Below, in pieces: positions 12,424-18,996 of a DNA stretch of 64,000 nucleotides (the stretch's first letter is position 1; each line of letters starts with the position of its first letter). Origin of the DNA: an uncultured delta proteobacterium (GTDB lineage: Bacteria > Desulfobacterota > SM23-61); contig CAVXFA010000040.1 of NCBI GenBank assembly GCA_963760605.1, positions 16,970 through 80,969 of the forward strand, in the 5' to 3' direction. The translations under genes and the position numbers were made by a program. Below the pieces are notes generated by a model, which had not been told where the DNA came from, searched no databases, and saw only the letters and a program-made list of their open reading frames with translations.

Positions 12424-12963
12424 ATGTCTTGGAAACTGGCCGTTGTGCCTGAACGCTGTTCTGGATGCAAGATTTGTGAACTGGTCTGCTCCATCGAACG
12501 TTTTGGAGTGAACAACCCAAAGAAGAGCGCGATTCAAGTGATGGTGGTCTATCCCCACCCGATCATAAGAATGCCGATCGTCTGCCGACAATGCAAGGTG
12601 GCCAAATGCATGGAGAACTGCCCGACGGGCGCCATTGCGACGAAAGACGGGATCTATGACATCGACGGGGAGAAATGTATCTCCTGCCAGCAGTGTGTCA
12701 TCTCCTGTCCCTTTGGGGCCATCTACCTCCACGACGAGATTGAGACACCCTTCAAATGCAATCTCTGTAACGGGTCACCCCGCTGTGTGGAGGCCTGCCC
12801 CAAAAATGCCCTTCTGTTTCTTCCGGATCACGTTCTCGGTCAGACCCAGAGGATGGCAAGTGTGTTGAAATACGGGCACATGAAAGAAGTGGAATACGTT
12901 GAAAAAGGAGAAAGGAAGGTTCTGAGATATGCCGACATCGAAAAGGGAAAAGCGGAAGATTAA
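12424..12963 (+). CDS. 4Fe-4S dicluster ferredoxin-domain protein (electron-transfer partner of AOR)
   Basis: 179 aa with four CxxCxxCxxxCP-type cluster motifs; overlaps and precedes the AOR gene. Confidence 0.85.
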   Translation: MSWKLAVVPERCSGCKICELVCSIERFGVNNPKKSAIQVMVVYPHPIIRMPIVCRQCKVAKCMENCPTGAIATKDGIYDIDGEKCISCQQCVISCPFGAIYLHDEIETPFKCNLCNGSPRCVEACPKNALLFLPDHVLGQTQRMASVLKYGHMKEVEYVEKGERKVLRYADIEKGKAED

Positions 12964-14794
12964 GGGTGGATATTTCTGGAAGATCCTCTGGGTTGACCTC
13001 GATCGGGAAGAGGCAAAACCACTCGAATTTGATGAATCCTTTGCTGCCAAGTATATCGGCGGAAGGGGATTTGGGGCCAAACTGGTCTGGGATAACCTTC
13101 GGCAAAAAGGAAGCGTTGATCCTCTCGGTCCTGAAAACCTTCTAGCCATCTCCCCGGGACCCCTGGCCGGTCTTTATCTTCCCGCCTCCGGAAAGACCTC
13201 CTTTATTTCGATCTCTCCGGAGACCAGGATTTACGGGGATTCAAGCATGGGCGGCTCCTTTGGTACCGAGCTCCGCCAGGCCGGTATCGATGCCCTGGCC
13301 ATTACGGGGAAGGCGAAGACCCTCTCCTATCTCTGGATCGACAACGAATCGGCGAGAATCATGCCCAACGAGAAATTGAAAGGAAAGGGGAGCTTAGAAG
13401 CCGAGGGATTGATTAAGGAAGAACTGAAGGACCAACATATTAAAGTGGCGACCATCGGCGTCGCCGGGGAGAATCGAGTCAAATTTGCCTGCGTCAGCTC
13501 AGATTGGGGGAGAAATTCCGGAAGGACGGGCATTGGCGCAGTCCTGGGATCGAAAAATCTTAAGGCCATTGCCGTCCGGGGTTCTCATGATCTCCCGGTC
13601 TTCGATCTCCCCAGGTTGCGGAAGGTATCCGATGCTTCCTTCCGCAGTCTGAGAGAGAACAAGAATCTGCCTTTCTGGCAGGAGCAGGGTCTGATGTCGG
13701 TTATCGACTATGTCAATGAGGCTGGAGTGATGCCGACCTATAACTTCAAGGAAGGCGTCTTCGAAGACGCGAAGAAGATCAATGGATACGAGATGCTCTC
13801 CAGATACAAGATTGGCGATACGGCCTGCTTTGCCTGCCCCATGGCCTGTGGAAACGTCTGTTTGGTGAAGGAAGGCAAATACCGCGGCACGGTCGTCGAA
13901 GGACCGGAATATGAGACGGCCTGTATGTTTGGCTCGAATATCGGAGTCAGCAACTTTGCGGCCATTGTCAAGGCCAACCAGCTCTGCGACGAACTTGGAT
14001 TGGACACGATCTCTGCGGGAAACCTGATCGGGGTCATGATGGAAGCGATCGAAACCGGCCTCCTCTCGGAAAAGGACCTCGATGGTCTCCCGCTCAAATG
14101 GGGAAATGAAGAAGCGATCATCGAAACCCTTCATCGGATCGCCCATCGCAAGGGCATCGGGAACATCCTCGCCGAGGGCACTCCGGGAGTGACCAAACAG
14201 TGGCCTCAGCTTCGACCGATCATTTCCCAGGTAAAAGGATTGGAGCAATCTGCTTATGATGCGAGAATTGCCATTTCCATGGCGCTGGGATACGCCACCT
14301 CCGATATCGGAGCCCACCATGCCCGAGCCTGGACCATTGCGAAGGAACTGGAGATGGGGATGGATTGGCCTCTCGAAAAGAAGGCCGACCTGGTGATCTA
14401 TCATCAAACGCTGCGGCCTCTCTTCGATATGCTCGGGGTCTGCCGGCTGCCCTGGATCGAACTCGGTTTTGATCAGAACAATTATGCGGAATATTATTCG
14501 GCGGTCACCGGCATAGAAACGACATTGGACCAACTCCTCCAGCGCTCTGCGGATCTCTACGACCTTACCCGGGCAATTAATATGAGATTAGGCATCTCCC
14601 GAAAAGATGACTATCCACCCGTGAGGGTCTTCGATTTACCGATGACGGAAGGACCTCATGCCGGAAAGATATTGAAGCGCGAGGATTACGAAATGATTCT
14701 CGACATCTACTATCAGAAGCGAGGCTGGACGAAGGACGGGCAGGTCCCGGATGAAAAGATCACCAAGTTCAATGATGCGCTGGTTACAGGATAG
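12929..14794 (+). CDS. Tungsten-containing aldehyde:ferredoxin oxidoreductase (AOR family)
   Basis: 621 aa; AOR N-terminal pattern GYFWKILWVDL; exact start codon uncertain (overlaps the ferredoxin gene). Confidence 0.85.
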   Translation: MPTSKREKRKIKGGYFWKILWVDLDREEAKPLEFDESFAAKYIGGRGFGAKLVWDNLRQKGSVDPLGPENLLAISPGPLAGLYLPASGKTSFISISPETRIYGDSSMGGSFGTELRQAGIDALAITGKAKTLSYLWIDNESARIMPNEKLKGKGSLEAEGLIKEELKDQHIKVATIGVAGENRVKFACVSSDWGRNSGRTGIGAVLGSKNLKAIAVRGSHDLPVFDLPRLRKVSDASFRSLRENKNLPFWQEQGLMSVIDYVNEAGVMPTYNFKEGVFEDAKKINGYEMLSRYKIGDTACFACPMACGNVCLVKEGKYRGTVVEGPEYETACMFGSNIGVSNFAAIVKANQLCDELGLDTISAGNLIGVMMEAIETGLLSEKDLDGLPLKWGNEEAIIETLHRIAHRKGIGNILAEGTPGVTKQWPQLRPIISQVKGLEQSAYDARIAISMALGYATSDIGAHHARAWTIAKELEMGMDWPLEKKADLVIYHQTLRPLFDMLGVCRLPWIELGFDQNNYAEYYSAVTGIETTLDQLLQRSADLYDLTRAINMRLGISRKDDYPPVRVFDLPMTEGPHAGKILKREDYEMILDIYYQKRGWTKDGQVPDEKITKFNDALVTG

Positions 14795-15017: not shown

Positions 15018-15944
15018 ATGAGACCAGCAGCAAAATTCTCAGGTATTTTATACATTGTCTCCACCCCCATCGGGAATCTGGAGGACATCACGCTGCGGGC
15101 TCTTCGCGTGCTCAAAGAAGTAGACCTGATCGCGGCTGAGGACACCCGTCGGACCCGGCAACTCCTCAGCCACTATGGAATTCACAAACCATTGCTTAGC
15201 TACCATGAGCACAACCGGAGGATGCGGGAAGAGTCTCTGCTGGAAGAACTTCGAGGAGGGAAGAGCATTGCCTTGGTCACGGATGCTGGCACACCGGGGA
15301 TCTCTGACCCAGGTGAGCCGTTGGTGAGGAGGGCGGTACAGGAATCTATCCCCCTTGTTCCGATCCCCGGTCCTTCCGCTTTGGTGGCTGCCTTGAGTGT
15401 TTCGGGTCTGCCCACGGAAAGTTTTCTGTTCTATGGTTTCTTGCCTTCGAAGGCTGCTGGCAGACAGAAACTATTGCTTTCCCTGAAGGACCGCCCGGAG
15501 ACGCTCATCTTCTACGAATCTCCCAGACGCCTGCGTTCCTTTCTGGAAGATGCCTCGCGGATTCTGGGAGAACGCCAGGTCATGGTGGCCCGGGAGATGA
15601 CCAAGGTTTACGAGGAGGTCTACCGGGGGACCCTCTCCGAAGTGTTAAAGGAATTCGCCGAAGAAGAAATCAAGGGAGAAGTAACGATCGTCCTGGAGGG
15701 TAGCACCCTTCCGGCCAGGGTTGCCAGGCCGGCGATTGAAGAAGCGCTCGAGCTCTACTACCGCGAAATGGGCCTATCCATGAAAAAAGCCATCGCTCGG
15801 GTGGCGGAGGAGCTGGAGGTTTCCAAAAAGGATGTCTACAGAGAGAGTTTACAGGTGAAGAGGAAAATCAGAGATCAGGCCCGGGAAGAGAACCTGCTCC
15901 CCGGGAAGAACTCCGCAAAAGCCTCCGGGGAGCAGGAAACCTGA
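15018..15944 (+). CDS. rsmI: 16S rRNA (cytidine1402-2'-O)-methyltransferase RsmI
   Basis: 308 aa; tetrapyrrole-methylase fold motifs (LYIVSTPIGNLEDITLRA, AAEDTR). Confidence 0.9.
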   Translation: MRPAAKFSGILYIVSTPIGNLEDITLRALRVLKEVDLIAAEDTRRTRQLLSHYGIHKPLLSYHEHNRRMREESLLEELRGGKSIALVTDAGTPGISDPGEPLVRRAVQESIPLVPIPGPSALVAALSVSGLPTESFLFYGFLPSKAAGRQKLLLSLKDRPETLIFYESPRRLRSFLEDASRILGERQVMVAREMTKVYEEVYRGTLSEVLKEFAEEEIKGEVTIVLEGSTLPARVARPAIEEALELYYREMGLSMKKAIARVAEELEVSKKDVYRESLQVKRKIRDQAREENLLPGKNSAKASGEQET

Positions 15945-15945
15945 G

Positions 15946-16137
15946 TTACTTCTTGCCGCGTTTCTTTTTCATGGGCGTTTCGCAGCAGATGATGTCGCAG
16001 GCATCCACGCAGCCACAGACATCGTCCACGATGACGGACAAGCCGCAAACCTCGCAGGCATAAGCATCGCCGGCTTTGGTCTTCGTCTTGGCCACGCCCT
16101 TCTTGGCCGTTTTCGCCACTCTCTTTTTAACTGCCAT
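15946..16137 (-). CDS. Small Lys-rich, Cys-rich protein of unknown function (7 Cys in a 24-residue core: C-x2-C-x10-C-x-C-x3-C-x3-CC)
   Basis: 63-aa ORF convergent with rsmI; basic tails on both ends (MAVKKRVAKTAKKGVAKTKTKAG ... MKKKRGKK) flank an acidic Cys-rich core. Confidence 0.45.
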   Translation of the reverse strand: MAVKKRVAKTAKKGVAKTKTKAGDAYACEVCGLSVIVDDVCGCVDACDIICCETPMKKKRGKK

Positions 16138-16185
16138 CTTCCTGACCTCCTTTTTTTTATTTTTCGCCTGGGTGAACTTCGGGGT

Positions 16186-17511
16186 TCACCCCGTCATTTC
16201 CACCGGACCCAATGGCTCGAACTCCCGGCGGAACTTTTCTGCTCGGCCAACAACAACGATAAGCATCTTTTCCGGATGAATGTGCCCGCGGGCTGTTCGG
16301 GCGACCTCTTCGAGGGAAATTTCCGAAACCCGATCTGGGTAGGCCGCAAGGTATTCCAACCCCAAGCCATGAATCTCCGCTTGAATGATCCTTTGGGCAA
16401 CCTGAGAGAGGGTCTCAAACTTCATGGGGTAGCTTCCGGCGAGGAAGTGGATGGCTTCTTCCCGTTCCTGATCCGTGGCGCCCTGCGCGATAAAGGATTG
16501 GATGACGGCCAAGATCTCCTGCACGCAAGGGAAAGTAGTCCCGGTGGGAGTGAACGTGGAGATGGTGAATGGCCCGGGATTTTTCCGGGGCTCCAGCGCC
16601 GCGCGAATGCCATAGGTATAGCCCAGTTCCGAGCGGATCTTCTGCATCAGCCGGGAGGAGAAGCCACCCGCCCCCAGGATATAGTTCATGACCTCGAAGG
16701 CGAGATAATCCGGATGAGCATGAGGAATCCCGATATGCCCCAGACGAATCTGGCTCTGGGTCAAATCTGGGCGGTTGATTAAAAAGCTCCGGACCCCGGA
16801 AAGAGCCGGGGCGGAGAATTCACCCTCCCCGAAGCTTCGGCCTTGATTCCCCGCGGGGAAATTTTCCTCAACCCACCGGAAGCAGGCTTCAGCCTGTAAA
16901 TCCCCCACGAAGACCAACAGGCTTCCTGCCGGCAAAAGGCGCCGCTGGTAGAACTCTTGCGATTCCTCCCCGAGGAGGTGGGGAAGAGACTGCAGGGTCC
17001 CGTAAACGGGATGATCAAAGGGGGTGCCCTGGAAAAGGACTTCCTGGAACCTTTCATCCGCGATGATTTCAGATTCATCCTTTTGTTGCACCAGGGCGGC
17101 GATGCGACGTTGTTTTAACTGTTTGAACTCTTCGGGAGAAAAAGCAGGTTGAGTGTAGAGTTCCAGGAGCAGGTTCATCAGCTGCCCAAAGTCTTCATTC
17201 AGCCCGAAGATATGCAAGGAAGTAGAGTTCCATCCGGAGTGAGCGGATAGGGTGGCGCCCCATCCATCCACTTCCGCAGCCAATTGGCTGGCGGATCTTT
17301 TTTTCGTGCCCAGGATCAGCATTTCCGCCGAAAGGTTGGATAGGCCTGCTTTCCCGGGAGGGTCGGCCTCAGCTCCGCAGGGAATGACGAGGTGGATGCT
17401 GATTAAGGGAAGCTCCGGGCGCTGGATCGCATAAACCTTCAATCCATTCCGCAAAACCGCGGAAGAGACCGGTGGAAGGTAGAAAACCCTGGATTGAGCC
17501 CCCCCGCTCAT
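16186..17511 (-). CDS. M16-family peptidase, non-catalytic partner subunit
   Basis: 441 aa; M16 fold signature without an HxxEH motif; paired with the upstream active M16 gene. Confidence 0.75.
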   Translation of the reverse strand: MSGGAQSRVFYLPPVSSAVLRNGLKVYAIQRPELPLISIHLVIPCGAEADPPGKAGLSNLSAEMLILGTKKRSASQLAAEVDGWGATLSAHSGWNSTSLHIFGLNEDFGQLMNLLLELYTQPAFSPEEFKQLKQRRIAALVQQKDESEIIADERFQEVLFQGTPFDHPVYGTLQSLPHLLGEESQEFYQRRLLPAGSLLVFVGDLQAEACFRWVEENFPAGNQGRSFGEGEFSAPALSGVRSFLINRPDLTQSQIRLGHIGIPHAHPDYLAFEVMNYILGAGGFSSRLMQKIRSELGYTYGIRAALEPRKNPGPFTISTFTPTGTTFPCVQEILAVIQSFIAQGATDQEREEAIHFLAGSYPMKFETLSQVAQRIIQAEIHGLGLEYLAAYPDRVSEISLEEVARTARGHIHPEKMLIVVVGRAEKFRREFEPLGPVEMTG

Positions 17512-18845
17512 TCTACCTCCCCCAGCCCCTCGTGTTCGCTTTGGTTTACCGGCTGGAGAGTAATCACGGTTCGGTTTTCAGGCGGGAGATATTTCCGGGC
17601 TACCCGCAGGAGGTCATCCGCCTTCACGGCTTCGTAATTGGGCAGGAGGGTATAGAGAAGGCGAAAATCTCCGGCTCGCACCTGGTAGAGTCCGGCCAAC
17701 AGTCCTTTGAAAAAAAGCGTTTCCAAGGCTTGGAGAAAATAGGAGCGCACCTGTTTTTTTACTTTGAGAAGTTCTTCCCCGGAAAGGGGTTCCTGGCGAA
17801 GGTTTTCCACTTCCTCCCAGATCTCCCTTTCCAGGGTACCTAAGGAAGTGGCCGGGGAGGCAATGGCATAAATTTGCAAGAGACCCGGGTCCGCAGTGAA
17901 GAAGGGAGGATACCCCATCTCCGCTCGTACTTCCACGGCTTTTCCCGGTTTTTCAAATTTCTCAAAAAAACGGGAGGAGCGACCTGCGGATAGGGTTGCG
18001 CAGAGGATTTGCAAAGGAAAGAGGTCCGGATGAGTGATCCCCGGAATGTGAAAGCCCGCGAAAAAGGCGGCGACCTGAGAAACTTTTTTGAAGATGGCCC
18101 GCTTTTCTCCTCGTTGGGGTTTCTCCAGGGGAAGGATGAGGCGCGGGGGAATGGGAGACGCCAGGTGCCCGTAGTATCTCTCCACGGTTTCAAAAACCTC
18201 ATCGGCAGCAACATCTCCAACGACAACAACCACAGCATTGCGGGGAGAATAATGGACCCGGTAATACTCCCGGCAGTCATCCAGGGTCAGGTTTTTCAGG
18301 TCGTGGTCCCAGCCGATGACCGGCCAGCGGTAAGGATGCTGCTCGTAGGCCAAGGAGAAGAGCTGCTCGATGAGGAGTCCGAAGGGGCTGTTCACGGAGC
18401 GCAGCTTGCGCTCGCTGCGAACCACTTCTCGTTCCGGCTCCAAACTCTCTTGGGTTAGACGGAGGTTTTCCAGGCGATCCGCCTCCAGGCGTATGGCCAG
18501 CTCAAGCTTGTCGGTCGGCAGGTTTTCAAAGTACGAGGTGTTGTCCGTGGTCGTAAAAGCGTTCAGGGTTCCCCCGTTGGCCTGGATAATCCGGGAAAAC
18601 TCTTCGGGGCCCAGATCTTTCGTTCCCTTGAACATCATGTGTTCGAAGAGATGGGTAATGCCTGTGATGCCCGGCCTTTCATACCGGGAGCCCGCGGCAA
18701 AATGCATCTGATAAGTGATGAGGGGGAGGGAGTGGACCTCGCCCACGAGAATGCGGAGGCCGTTTGCCAGACGATGCTCCAGAAATTCGGGAAGCCCTCT
18801 CACTTCACTCTTTCCAATGGATGCACTGGACCGGACAACTGTCAA
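17508..18845 (-). CDS. M16-family (pitrilysin-like) zinc peptidase, catalytic subunit
   Basis: 445 aa; inverted zinc-binding HxxEH motif (HLFEHMMFKGT). Confidence 0.85.
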   Translation of the reverse strand: MTVVRSSASIGKSEVRGLPEFLEHRLANGLRILVGEVHSLPLITYQMHFAAGSRYERPGITGITHLFEHMMFKGTKDLGPEEFSRIIQANGGTLNAFTTTDNTSYFENLPTDKLELAIRLEADRLENLRLTQESLEPEREVVRSERKLRSVNSPFGLLIEQLFSLAYEQHPYRWPVIGWDHDLKNLTLDDCREYYRVHYSPRNAVVVVVGDVAADEVFETVERYYGHLASPIPPRLILPLEKPQRGEKRAIFKKVSQVAAFFAGFHIPGITHPDLFPLQILCATLSAGRSSRFFEKFEKPGKAVEVRAEMGYPPFFTADPGLLQIYAIASPATSLGTLEREIWEEVENLRQEPLSGEELLKVKKQVRSYFLQALETLFFKGLLAGLYQVRAGDFRLLYTLLPNYEAVKADDLLRVARKYLPPENRTVITLQPVNQSEHEGLGEVE

Positions 18846-18996
18846 TGGCTTCCTGGATCTTCTCTCCGGAAGCGCCGGTGGGATTGTAGACTTCCGAGAG
18901 GTCGTTATCGTTCAGACGGAAGACCTCCGGGCAGATTTCCACACAAAGTCCGCAGGAGATACACTCATCCTGATTGACCGCGGGGATCTGATTCAT
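18805..18996 (-). CDS. Small [4Fe-4S]/[3Fe-4S] ferredoxin
   Basis: 63 aa; CISCGLCVEICP ... CPVQCI arrangement of single-cluster ferredoxins. Confidence 0.8.
   Translation of the reverse strand: MNQIPAVNQDECISCGLCVEICPEVFRLNDNDLSEVYNPTGASGEKIQEAIDSCPVQCIHWKE

Follow-up and report, generated by a model that had tools for sequence, protein, structure and literature searches.

A small protein family of uncultured anaerobes with a predicted divergent desulforedoxin domain and basic tails

Desulforedoxin (Dx) has served as a biophysical model protein for decades; its known distribution is narrow, and it has no settled role. The Desulfovibrio gigas protein (1dxg, 1cfw) is a bare domain of 36 amino acids (aa), and an adjacent Cys pair sets Dx apart from rubredoxin. 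A domain of the same family (PF06397) forms the N-terminal part of desulfoferrodoxin, or 2Fe-superoxide reductase (2Fe-SOR; 1dfx, 1vzg, 2ji1). Other small redox proteins are known as companions of bacterioferritin: rubredoxin-2 is co-transcribed with it in Desulfovibrio desulfuricans, and the Bfd motif C-x-C-x31-34-C-x2-C holds a [2Fe-2S] cluster. Here, we describe a 63-aa protein, labelled X, which is encoded at 16137..15946 on the minus strand of a 64,000-nt stretch of DNA from an uncultured delta proteobacterium (assembly GCA_963760605.1, contig CAVXFA010000040.1, positions 16,970 to 80,969). This whole stretch is referred to below as the window. We consider it fairly probable that X is a small Dx-type iron protein, likely a dimer, which takes part in the iron/oxygen-stress network of anaerobes. 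No paper describing a Dx-like protein of the X type was found in a limited literature search, and the matches to C. difficile oxygen tolerance were unrelated.

Sequence and predicted fold of the core

The coding sequence of X (15946..16137, minus strand) is translated exactly as MAVKKRVAKTAKKGVAKTKTKAGDAYACEVCGLSVIVDDVCGCVDACDIICCETPMKKKRGKK*, with a TAA stop codon at 15946-15948. The plus strand of 15946-16137 contains no open reading frame (ORF), and X is therefore assigned to the minus strand. A ribosome-binding site (RBS), GGAGG, is located at 16146..16150 on the same strand, 8 nt 5' of the ATG codon. The protein has seven cysteines (C28, C31, C41, C43, C47, C51 and C52), which are arranged as C-x2-C-x9-C-x-C-x3-C-x3-CC and span 25 residues. 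An earlier reading of this DNA made without database searches (hereafter the sequence-only reading) had counted the seven cysteines correctly, but its x10 spacing and its span of 24 residues were each off by one. It had given no strand for the gene. It had also described an acidic Cys core with basic ends, and this description holds. The Lys/Ala-rich N-terminal tail (residues 1-22; 16072..16137, minus strand) has a net charge of +9, the acidic Dx-like core (residues 23-56; 15970..16071, minus strand), within which all seven cysteines lie, has a net charge of -7, and the C-terminal basic tail KKKRGKK (residues 57-63; 15949..15969, minus strand) has a net charge of +6.

When compared alone with PDB sequences, the window protein gives a weak match to Dx (E = 0.23). 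Profiles were built from two alignments, a narrow one of 47 members (A1) and a broad one of 72 diverse representatives (A2). All 47 members of A1 match PF06397 (Desulfoferrod_N) at E <= 1, the best of them at 8.6e-6, and several relatives hold a precomputed match to this family. In the PDB, the A1 profile finds Dx 1cfw at E = 0.0029, while the A2 profile finds it at E = 1.4e-5, together with four desulfoferrodoxin sequences at 2-6e-4. The X and Dx sequences are aligned along GD-Y-C-E-x-C-G ... V-x-V ... C-C-x3-M-K, with a 4-residue gap placed by HMMER in Dx; the distance between C31 and C51 is 19 residues in X versus 15 in Dx, which makes the loop four residues longer. The only invariant columns in A2 are C28, C31, G32, C51 and C52. 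The four cysteines among them align with the Fe(Cys)4 ligands C9, C12, C28 and C29 of Dx; their codons are located on the minus strand at 16054-16056 (C28), 16045-16047 (C31), 15985-15987 (C51) and 15982-15984 (C52).

The predicted structure points in the same direction. AlphaFold gave an unusable model with A1 (predicted local distance difference test, pLDDT, of 52) and a usable one with A2; the AlphaFold2 model from A2 has a pLDDT of 74.8, with 88-89 in the core blocks. A Foldseek comparison of this model with the PDB placed 1dxg_A at rank 1 (target-normalised template-modelling (TM) score 0.91, root-mean-square deviation 1.1 Å, probability 1.00). Ranks 2-6 are all N-terminal domains of desulfoferrodoxins, and the remaining matches have a probability of at most 0.25. 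Judged by profile and predicted fold, the X core is homologous to Dx and to the N-terminal domain of desulfoferrodoxin and represents a divergent Dx domain. The sequence-only reading had regarded the motif as matching no known spacing. Its outer four cysteines (C-x2-C ... CC) turned out to be the Dx signature, as seen from the profile, PF06397 and the predicted fold, so that X falls into a known family with a conserved four-Cys subset (C28/C31/C51/C52). The broader proposal of that reading, a metal-binding peptide, survives in the more specific form of a Dx-type four-Cys site, predicted by homology. We infer a distorted rubredoxin-type site for iron in the core; by analogy with Dx, X is probably a dimer.

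When comparing X with D. gigas Dx, the common signature GD-Y-C-x2-C-G ... C-C-x3-M with its four invariant ligand cysteines can be noted, as well as the beta-hairpin round the first knuckle; the predicted X fold as a whole superposes on Dx. Unlike Dx, X has the longer loop between the knuckle and CC, in which three extra putative Cys/His ligands are located, and is flanked by long polycationic tails. Its hosts also differ: X occurs in Syntrophia, Chloroflexota, Nitrospirota, Omnitrophota and others, not in Desulfovibrio. With desulfoferrodoxin X shares the domain family and the oxygen-defence setting in anaerobes, but it is free-standing and lacks the SOR catalytic domain. It resembles rubredoxin as a small protein with a (predicted) Fe(Cys)4 site whose gene lies beside bacterioferritin, rubrerythrin and flavodiiron protein (FDP) genes, yet it has CC and no second CPxCG knuckle. 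Rubredoxins have two C-x2-C-G knuckles, the second mostly C-P-x-C-G, at a distance of about 30 residues. Only the first knuckle matches rubredoxin, the PDB profile matches spanning 8-10 residues at E values of 0.4-3.5.

Family spread, accessory triad and basic tails

A search with the single X sequence yielded 185 clusters at 90% identity, all of 52-86 aa and with one common architecture. When 1.84 billion representatives were searched exhaustively with a profile, 378 clusters at 50% identity (E <= 1e-3) were obtained, including 103 at E <= 1e-10; among the 90%-identity clusters, a profile matched 900. Scanning a single genome for each species brought up 150 relatives, and the locus counts given in this work cover the best 80 of these 150. 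Every one of the 80 loci belongs to a metagenome-assembled genome (MAG). The hosts are Syntrophaceae, Syntrophorhabdus and other Thermodesulfobacteriota, Dehalococcoidia and other Chloroflexota, Nitrospirota, Omnitrophota, WOR-3, Planctomycetia and Clostridia, at least seven phyla in all. The X family is widespread among uncultured anaerobes and, with it, the Dx knuckle in an elaborated form bearing the additional Cys/His triad and polycationic tails.

The core codons of the 80 loci have entropies of 0.48, 0.44 and 1.37 at positions 1, 2 and 3, the third being three-fold higher. The median ratio of nonsynonymous to synonymous substitution rates (dN/dS) is 0.10, which indicates strong purifying selection, and an RBS-like motif is found 5' of 70 of the 79 family genes. 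The gene for X is genuine and strongly conserved. The family is without a model of its own in Pfam and in NCBIfam. Its members appear in public records as 'hypothetical protein' or under the wrong names of rubrerythrin, L32 or TFIIE; the 'L32' label on one Joint Genome Institute record is without support. With a family model, hundreds of MAGs could therefore be annotated better.

Some genomes contain two or three copies of X (L015, L036 and L056 in one MAG; L039 and L058 in one; L066 and L073 in one). The contexts of these paralogues differ: one copy is located in a block of ribonucleotide reductase (RNR), DUF3108, X and flavoprotein genes, and another beside rubrerythrin-like and flavin reductase genes. 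These differing contexts suggest that the paralogues have been sub-functionalised.

The loop between C-x2-C-G and CC was classified in the 149 top-ranking representatives from the exhaustive profile search. Most of these loops have 18 residues, with or without cysteines. In the 111 representatives with an 18-residue loop, positions 41, 43 and 47 are occupied by CCC in 47 cases and by CCH in 33, while 16 have none of the three ligands. Partial triads are represented by CC- (9) and by other patterns (6); four partial cases, mostly CC-, have a His48. D38 is kept in every triad class. The window gene belongs to the CCC class, with codons at 16015-16017 (C41), 16009-16011 (C43) and 15997-15999 (C47) on the minus strand, and its orthologue P0351, in which position 47 is His, retains the same synteny of ferredoxin, two M16 peptidase genes and X. 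The triad is essentially all-or-none, with a third position alternating between Cys and His. Since it is kept or lost as a unit, C41, C43 and C47/H47 probably function together, and the simplest reading of them is a second metal site. The fourth ligand of this putative site might be an acidic residue within the monomer or might be supplied across the dimer. For the variants with only the four Dx-type cysteines, genome context comes from contigs of 1-1.5 kb and is uninformative. At some 60 residues, X would offer a tractable system for studying a possible two-site Dx centre.

Tails on both sides of the core are present in all family members. The N-terminal tail has a median length of 24 aa (3-98) and the C-terminal tail of 7 aa (3-85), and their composition is dominated by K (33%) and A (21%), followed by V (8%), T (7%), R (7%) and P (5%). 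The median net charge of the family core is -6. Some members match the histone H1-like Pfam family HC2, the best at E = 4.3e-7; this resemblance is compositional and is not homology. Similar Lys/Ala-rich tails of low complexity, presumably disordered, are known from chlamydial Hc1/Hc2 and from the N-tail of Dps, whereas in X they flank a predicted metal-binding core. S/TPKK minor-groove motifs were considered as a trait of the tails and rejected, as they occur in only 14 of 393 proteins.

Genomic context and the proposed role

The sequence-only reading had proposed a survey of homologue contexts. In the 80 loci, neighbour ORFs were clustered and annotated with Pfam and NCBIfam; iron-storage and oxygen-defence genes proved to be enriched near X, and no consistent maturase was found. 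Ferritin, rubrerythrin-like, FDP, SOR and OsmC genes account for 29 of the 234 ORFs within 1 kb of X versus 2 of the 331 ORFs at a distance of at least 2.5 kb (odds ratio 23, Fisher p = 5e-10, a value that overstates independence owing to the phylogenetic relatedness of the loci). At least seven phyla contribute to the signal. In 17 loci, X has a ferritin, rubrerythrin-like or FDP gene no more than 400 nt away.

A ferritin-family gene adjoins X in 10 of the 80 loci, and in seven of these ten (Dehalococcoidia, WOR-3, Clostridia and Omnitrophota) it is located directly 3' of X on the same strand. In an alignment to an E. coli Bfr sequence, eight of the ten ferritin-family neighbours keep all di-iron ligands and the equivalent of the bacterioferritin Met52. 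Their best NCBIfam match is bacterioferritin, below the cutoff (67.8 versus 125.6 bits). The Bfr-like neighbours in seven loci (L014, L016, L020, L024, L026, L029 and L030) are short, about 140-150 aa, and do not extend into the region aligned with the last ~20 residues of E. coli Bfr; they retain all di-iron ligands and the equivalent of the heme-ligand Met. As a small Cys-rich protein whose gene adjoins a bacterioferritin-like gene, X is comparable with Bfd and is, like it, a plausible electron donor for iron release; however, Bfd has no sequence or fold kinship with X, and the link consists in gene adjacency in these 10 loci only.

In Omnitrophota, Clostridia and Planctomycetia, X is found inside oxygen-defence islands, which include genes for FDP, rubredoxin, rubrerythrins, SOR, FNR-like and TrxR-like flavoproteins and OsmC. 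The SOR genes of these islands (L042, 6195-6638; L065; L080) have an N-terminal rubredoxin-like domain (PF21349) and not one of the Dx type. Such islands encode the Dx-type domain separately, as X.

These observations can be brought together in the following scheme. The X core would hold Fe in a distorted rubredoxin-type site, and the polycationic tails would dock this acidic redox core onto a polyanionic partner. Candidate partners are the acidic shell of bacterioferritin or of rubrerythrin-type proteins, or DNA. X could then pass electrons or iron within the oxygen/iron-stress network, much as rubredoxin-2 or Bfd serves bacterioferritin. If this role is true, X is an extra component in the oxygen/iron defence kit of strict anaerobes.

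Several points weigh against the proposed role, besides the relatedness of the loci mentioned above. The window protein itself reaches 16 bits against PF06397 (E = 0.0098), while the gathering score is 23. To our knowledge, no role has been established for Dx itself, and therefore homology fixes no role for X. None of the iron/oxygen-defence genes considered is found in 56 of the 80 loci, and no ferritin, rubrerythrin or FDP gene occurs within the 64-kb window. The commonest contexts are of another kind, namely RNR-DUF3108-X-FAD oxidoreductase (about 24 loci) and ferredoxin-M16-M16-X (seven loci). A canonical rubredoxin is encoded directly 5' of X in two loci (L042 and L080) and nearby in three more (L074, L065 and L032), so X is an extra component rather than a replacement for rubredoxin. 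A Fur/PerR consensus was not enriched over shuffles in the 250 nt 5' of 79 family genes.

The RNR context is that of Syntrophia-type loci (L001, L002, L013, L023 and L056 among them), in which a class II RNR gene, a DUF3108 gene and X are followed by genes for an SdhA/NadB-like flavoprotein (530 aa), a PduO-type cobalamin adenosyltransferase and a TAXI/TRAP transporter. In three loci of this type, a rubrerythrin-like gene is inserted directly 5' of X. The 'TrxR' matches obtained next to X in Syntrophia loci were rejected, since they are cross-matches to the SdhA/NadB-like oxidoreductase through its FAD-binding motif.

X might instead be a structural zinc-knuckle protein that binds nucleic acids, either as an H1-like nucleoid protein or in association with ribosomes or RNA, with the tails doing the work, the Cys core serving only as a fold or dimerisation module, and with no iron or redox role. 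We regard this as unlikely. A zinc knuckle for nucleic acids had been among the candidates of the sequence-only reading. Every member has tails, their length differs widely (3-98 aa), and with much K, A, P and T they recall the C-terminal domain of H1 or chlamydial Hc2; the HC2 matches noted above fit as well. Dx-type sites are able to hold Zn in vitro, the RBS is strong, and many loci are monocistronic with housekeeping neighbours. However, the neighbourhood of X is rich in iron/oxygen-defence genes and not in replication, ribosome or nucleoid genes. The adjacent Cys pair is a hallmark of the iron protein Dx rather than of zinc ribbons, and the selected Cys/His triad suggests metal chemistry beyond a scaffold. 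The match to ribosomal zinc-ribbon proteins is poor (TM 0.12-0.20); for bL32, bL33, bL36 and others, neither a family match of X nor ribosomal neighbours in the 80 loci were found.

A combination of both ideas, which we rate as quite unlikely, would make X a two-metal Dx variant tethered to the nucleoid, forming a 'split Dps' with bacterioferritin, or else a redox sensor. As a split Dps, X would be a dimer in which each chain of the acidic core has an Fe(Cys)4 site and a Cys2-Cys/His site, and its four polycationic tails would lie on DNA. Iron would be captured or reduced there and handed to the co-encoded bacterioferritin, so that in strict anaerobes the DNA would be protected against Fenton chemistry. 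As a sensor, X would change its DNA binding with its metal or redox state.

It is also very unlikely that X is a buffer or chaperone of the metallothionein type, in which seven cysteines would store or detoxify metal (Zn, Cd, Cu or Fe) in a small thiolate cluster. Seven cysteines within 25 residues, the exchange of Cys for His at position 47 and the iron-storage genes adjoining X agree with such a function. Against it, about a fifth of the family representatives are devoid of the three inner cysteines, yet their four Dx ligands, tails and loop length are retained; a cluster of seven cysteines is therefore not required for the conserved function. No recurring metal-efflux or resistance genes are found near X in the 80 loci. 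The fold and profile matches are to Dx and not to SmtA-type proteins, and X has no Pfam, NCBIfam or PDB match to the metallothioneins SmtA/BmtA.

That X is a precursor appears highly improbable. Its tails would be cut by the co-encoded M16 pair, or its Cys core would be modified as in ribosomally synthesised and post-translationally modified peptides (RiPPs, such as SCIFF/ranthipeptides or sactipeptides), the second of these having been a suggestion of the sequence-only reading; a 34-aa core would be released. In the window and in its closest relatives, X does lie 3' of a pair of active (HLFEH) and inactive M16 genes in the same operon. M16B enzymes prefer short basic peptides, and by this analogy the M16 pair could act on the basic tails of X. 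Nevertheless, M16 adjacency is confined to 7 of the 80 loci and to a single lineage. The tails are kept in every context. Radical-SAM/SPASM genes occur near X in a few loci, but these neighbours are heterogeneous, the four radical-SAM genes belonging to different subfamilies and one of them (L029) being a below-cutoff match to a tungsten-cofactor maturase near an aldehyde:ferredoxin oxidoreductase (AOR) gene. No RiPP maturase is recurrent in the 80 loci, and none of the modifying enzymes is consistently adjacent to X. Unlike RiPP cores, the core of X is nearly invariant across phyla and is conserved as a whole; it is the most conserved part of the protein and the tails are the most variable, which is the reverse of the RiPP leader/core pattern. 

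Finally, a spurious ORF in an intergenic gap, which the shortness of X and its 'hypothetical' label in public records could suggest and which the sequence-only reading had considered, has a negligible probability and is refuted by amino acid conservation across phyla with synonymous drift (dN/dS 0.10), by the hundreds of homologue clusters and by the conserved RBS.

The window operon and its RNA hairpin

In the window, the gene order on the minus strand is ferredoxin, M16, M16 and X, with X being the last. The first gene of the cluster (18805..18996, minus strand) encodes a single-cluster ferredoxin of 63 aa (Pfam Fer4_13 at 3e-17). It is followed by an active-type M16 peptidase subunit, recognised by Pfam and with HLFEH at residue 65 (17508..18845, minus strand); according to the gene calls in L081 and L085, the true start of this gene is probably 3' of 18805, giving ~18800..17508. 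An inactive-type M16 peptidase-like subunit (16186..17511, minus strand; PF00675 and PF05193, no HxxEH) is encoded directly 5' of X. Such a pair, with HLFEH in one subunit and no HxxEH in the other, has the layout of heterodimeric M16B peptidases and of peptidases of the mitochondrial-processing type. His_Phos_1 and BrkB genes are divergent and located 5' of the cluster. The same order of four genes is found in six other loci (L005, L071, L081, L082, L085 and L086), sometimes with a Usp gene in front.

On the other side, X is met by a convergent gene of the plus strand (15018..15944), which encodes an RsmI-like methyltransferase (Pfam TP_methylase); its synteny is retained in 6 loci and close relatives, and the arrangement of M16, M16 and X followed by the convergent RsmI-like gene is present in seven loci including the window. 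The TGA codon of the RsmI-like gene (15942-15944) and the TAA codon of X are one base apart. This leaves no room for a terminator, and hence the transcripts overlap or end inside the opposing gene. A scan around X revealed neither a sigma-70-like promoter nor an intrinsic terminator next to it.

A conserved RNA hairpin, GGGTGAAC-loop-GTTCACCC, is located at 16170..16191 on the minus strand and overlaps the stop codon of the second M16 gene. It folds in all nine syntenic loci examined. Seven of its eight pairs are well kept, and three of the eight show compensatory changes (A-U/G-C exchanges). In total, 86% of the hairpin cells are paired, compared with 27-42% when the 3' partner is slid. A search of Rfam gave nothing above noise. 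The hairpin is followed by an A-rich spacer and then by AAAGGAGG; the RBS of X is ~20 nt from it. Since no U-tract follows the hairpin, it is not a classical terminator. Possibly, it is a processing or stability element that uncouples the expression of X from that of the peptidase genes; a position behind such a hairpin might let X be expressed at another level than they are.

An AOR gene is located in the window at 12929-14794, 1.2 kb downstream of X. AOR genes (cluster f22) recur in 4 loci, and in L029 the radical SAM/SPASM gene mentioned above (1467-2777) lies near one; its best NCBIfam match, a tungsten-cofactor oxidoreductase maturase, scores 285 bits at a cutoff of 380. This recurrence of AOR genes may reflect lineage synteny rather than a functional link.

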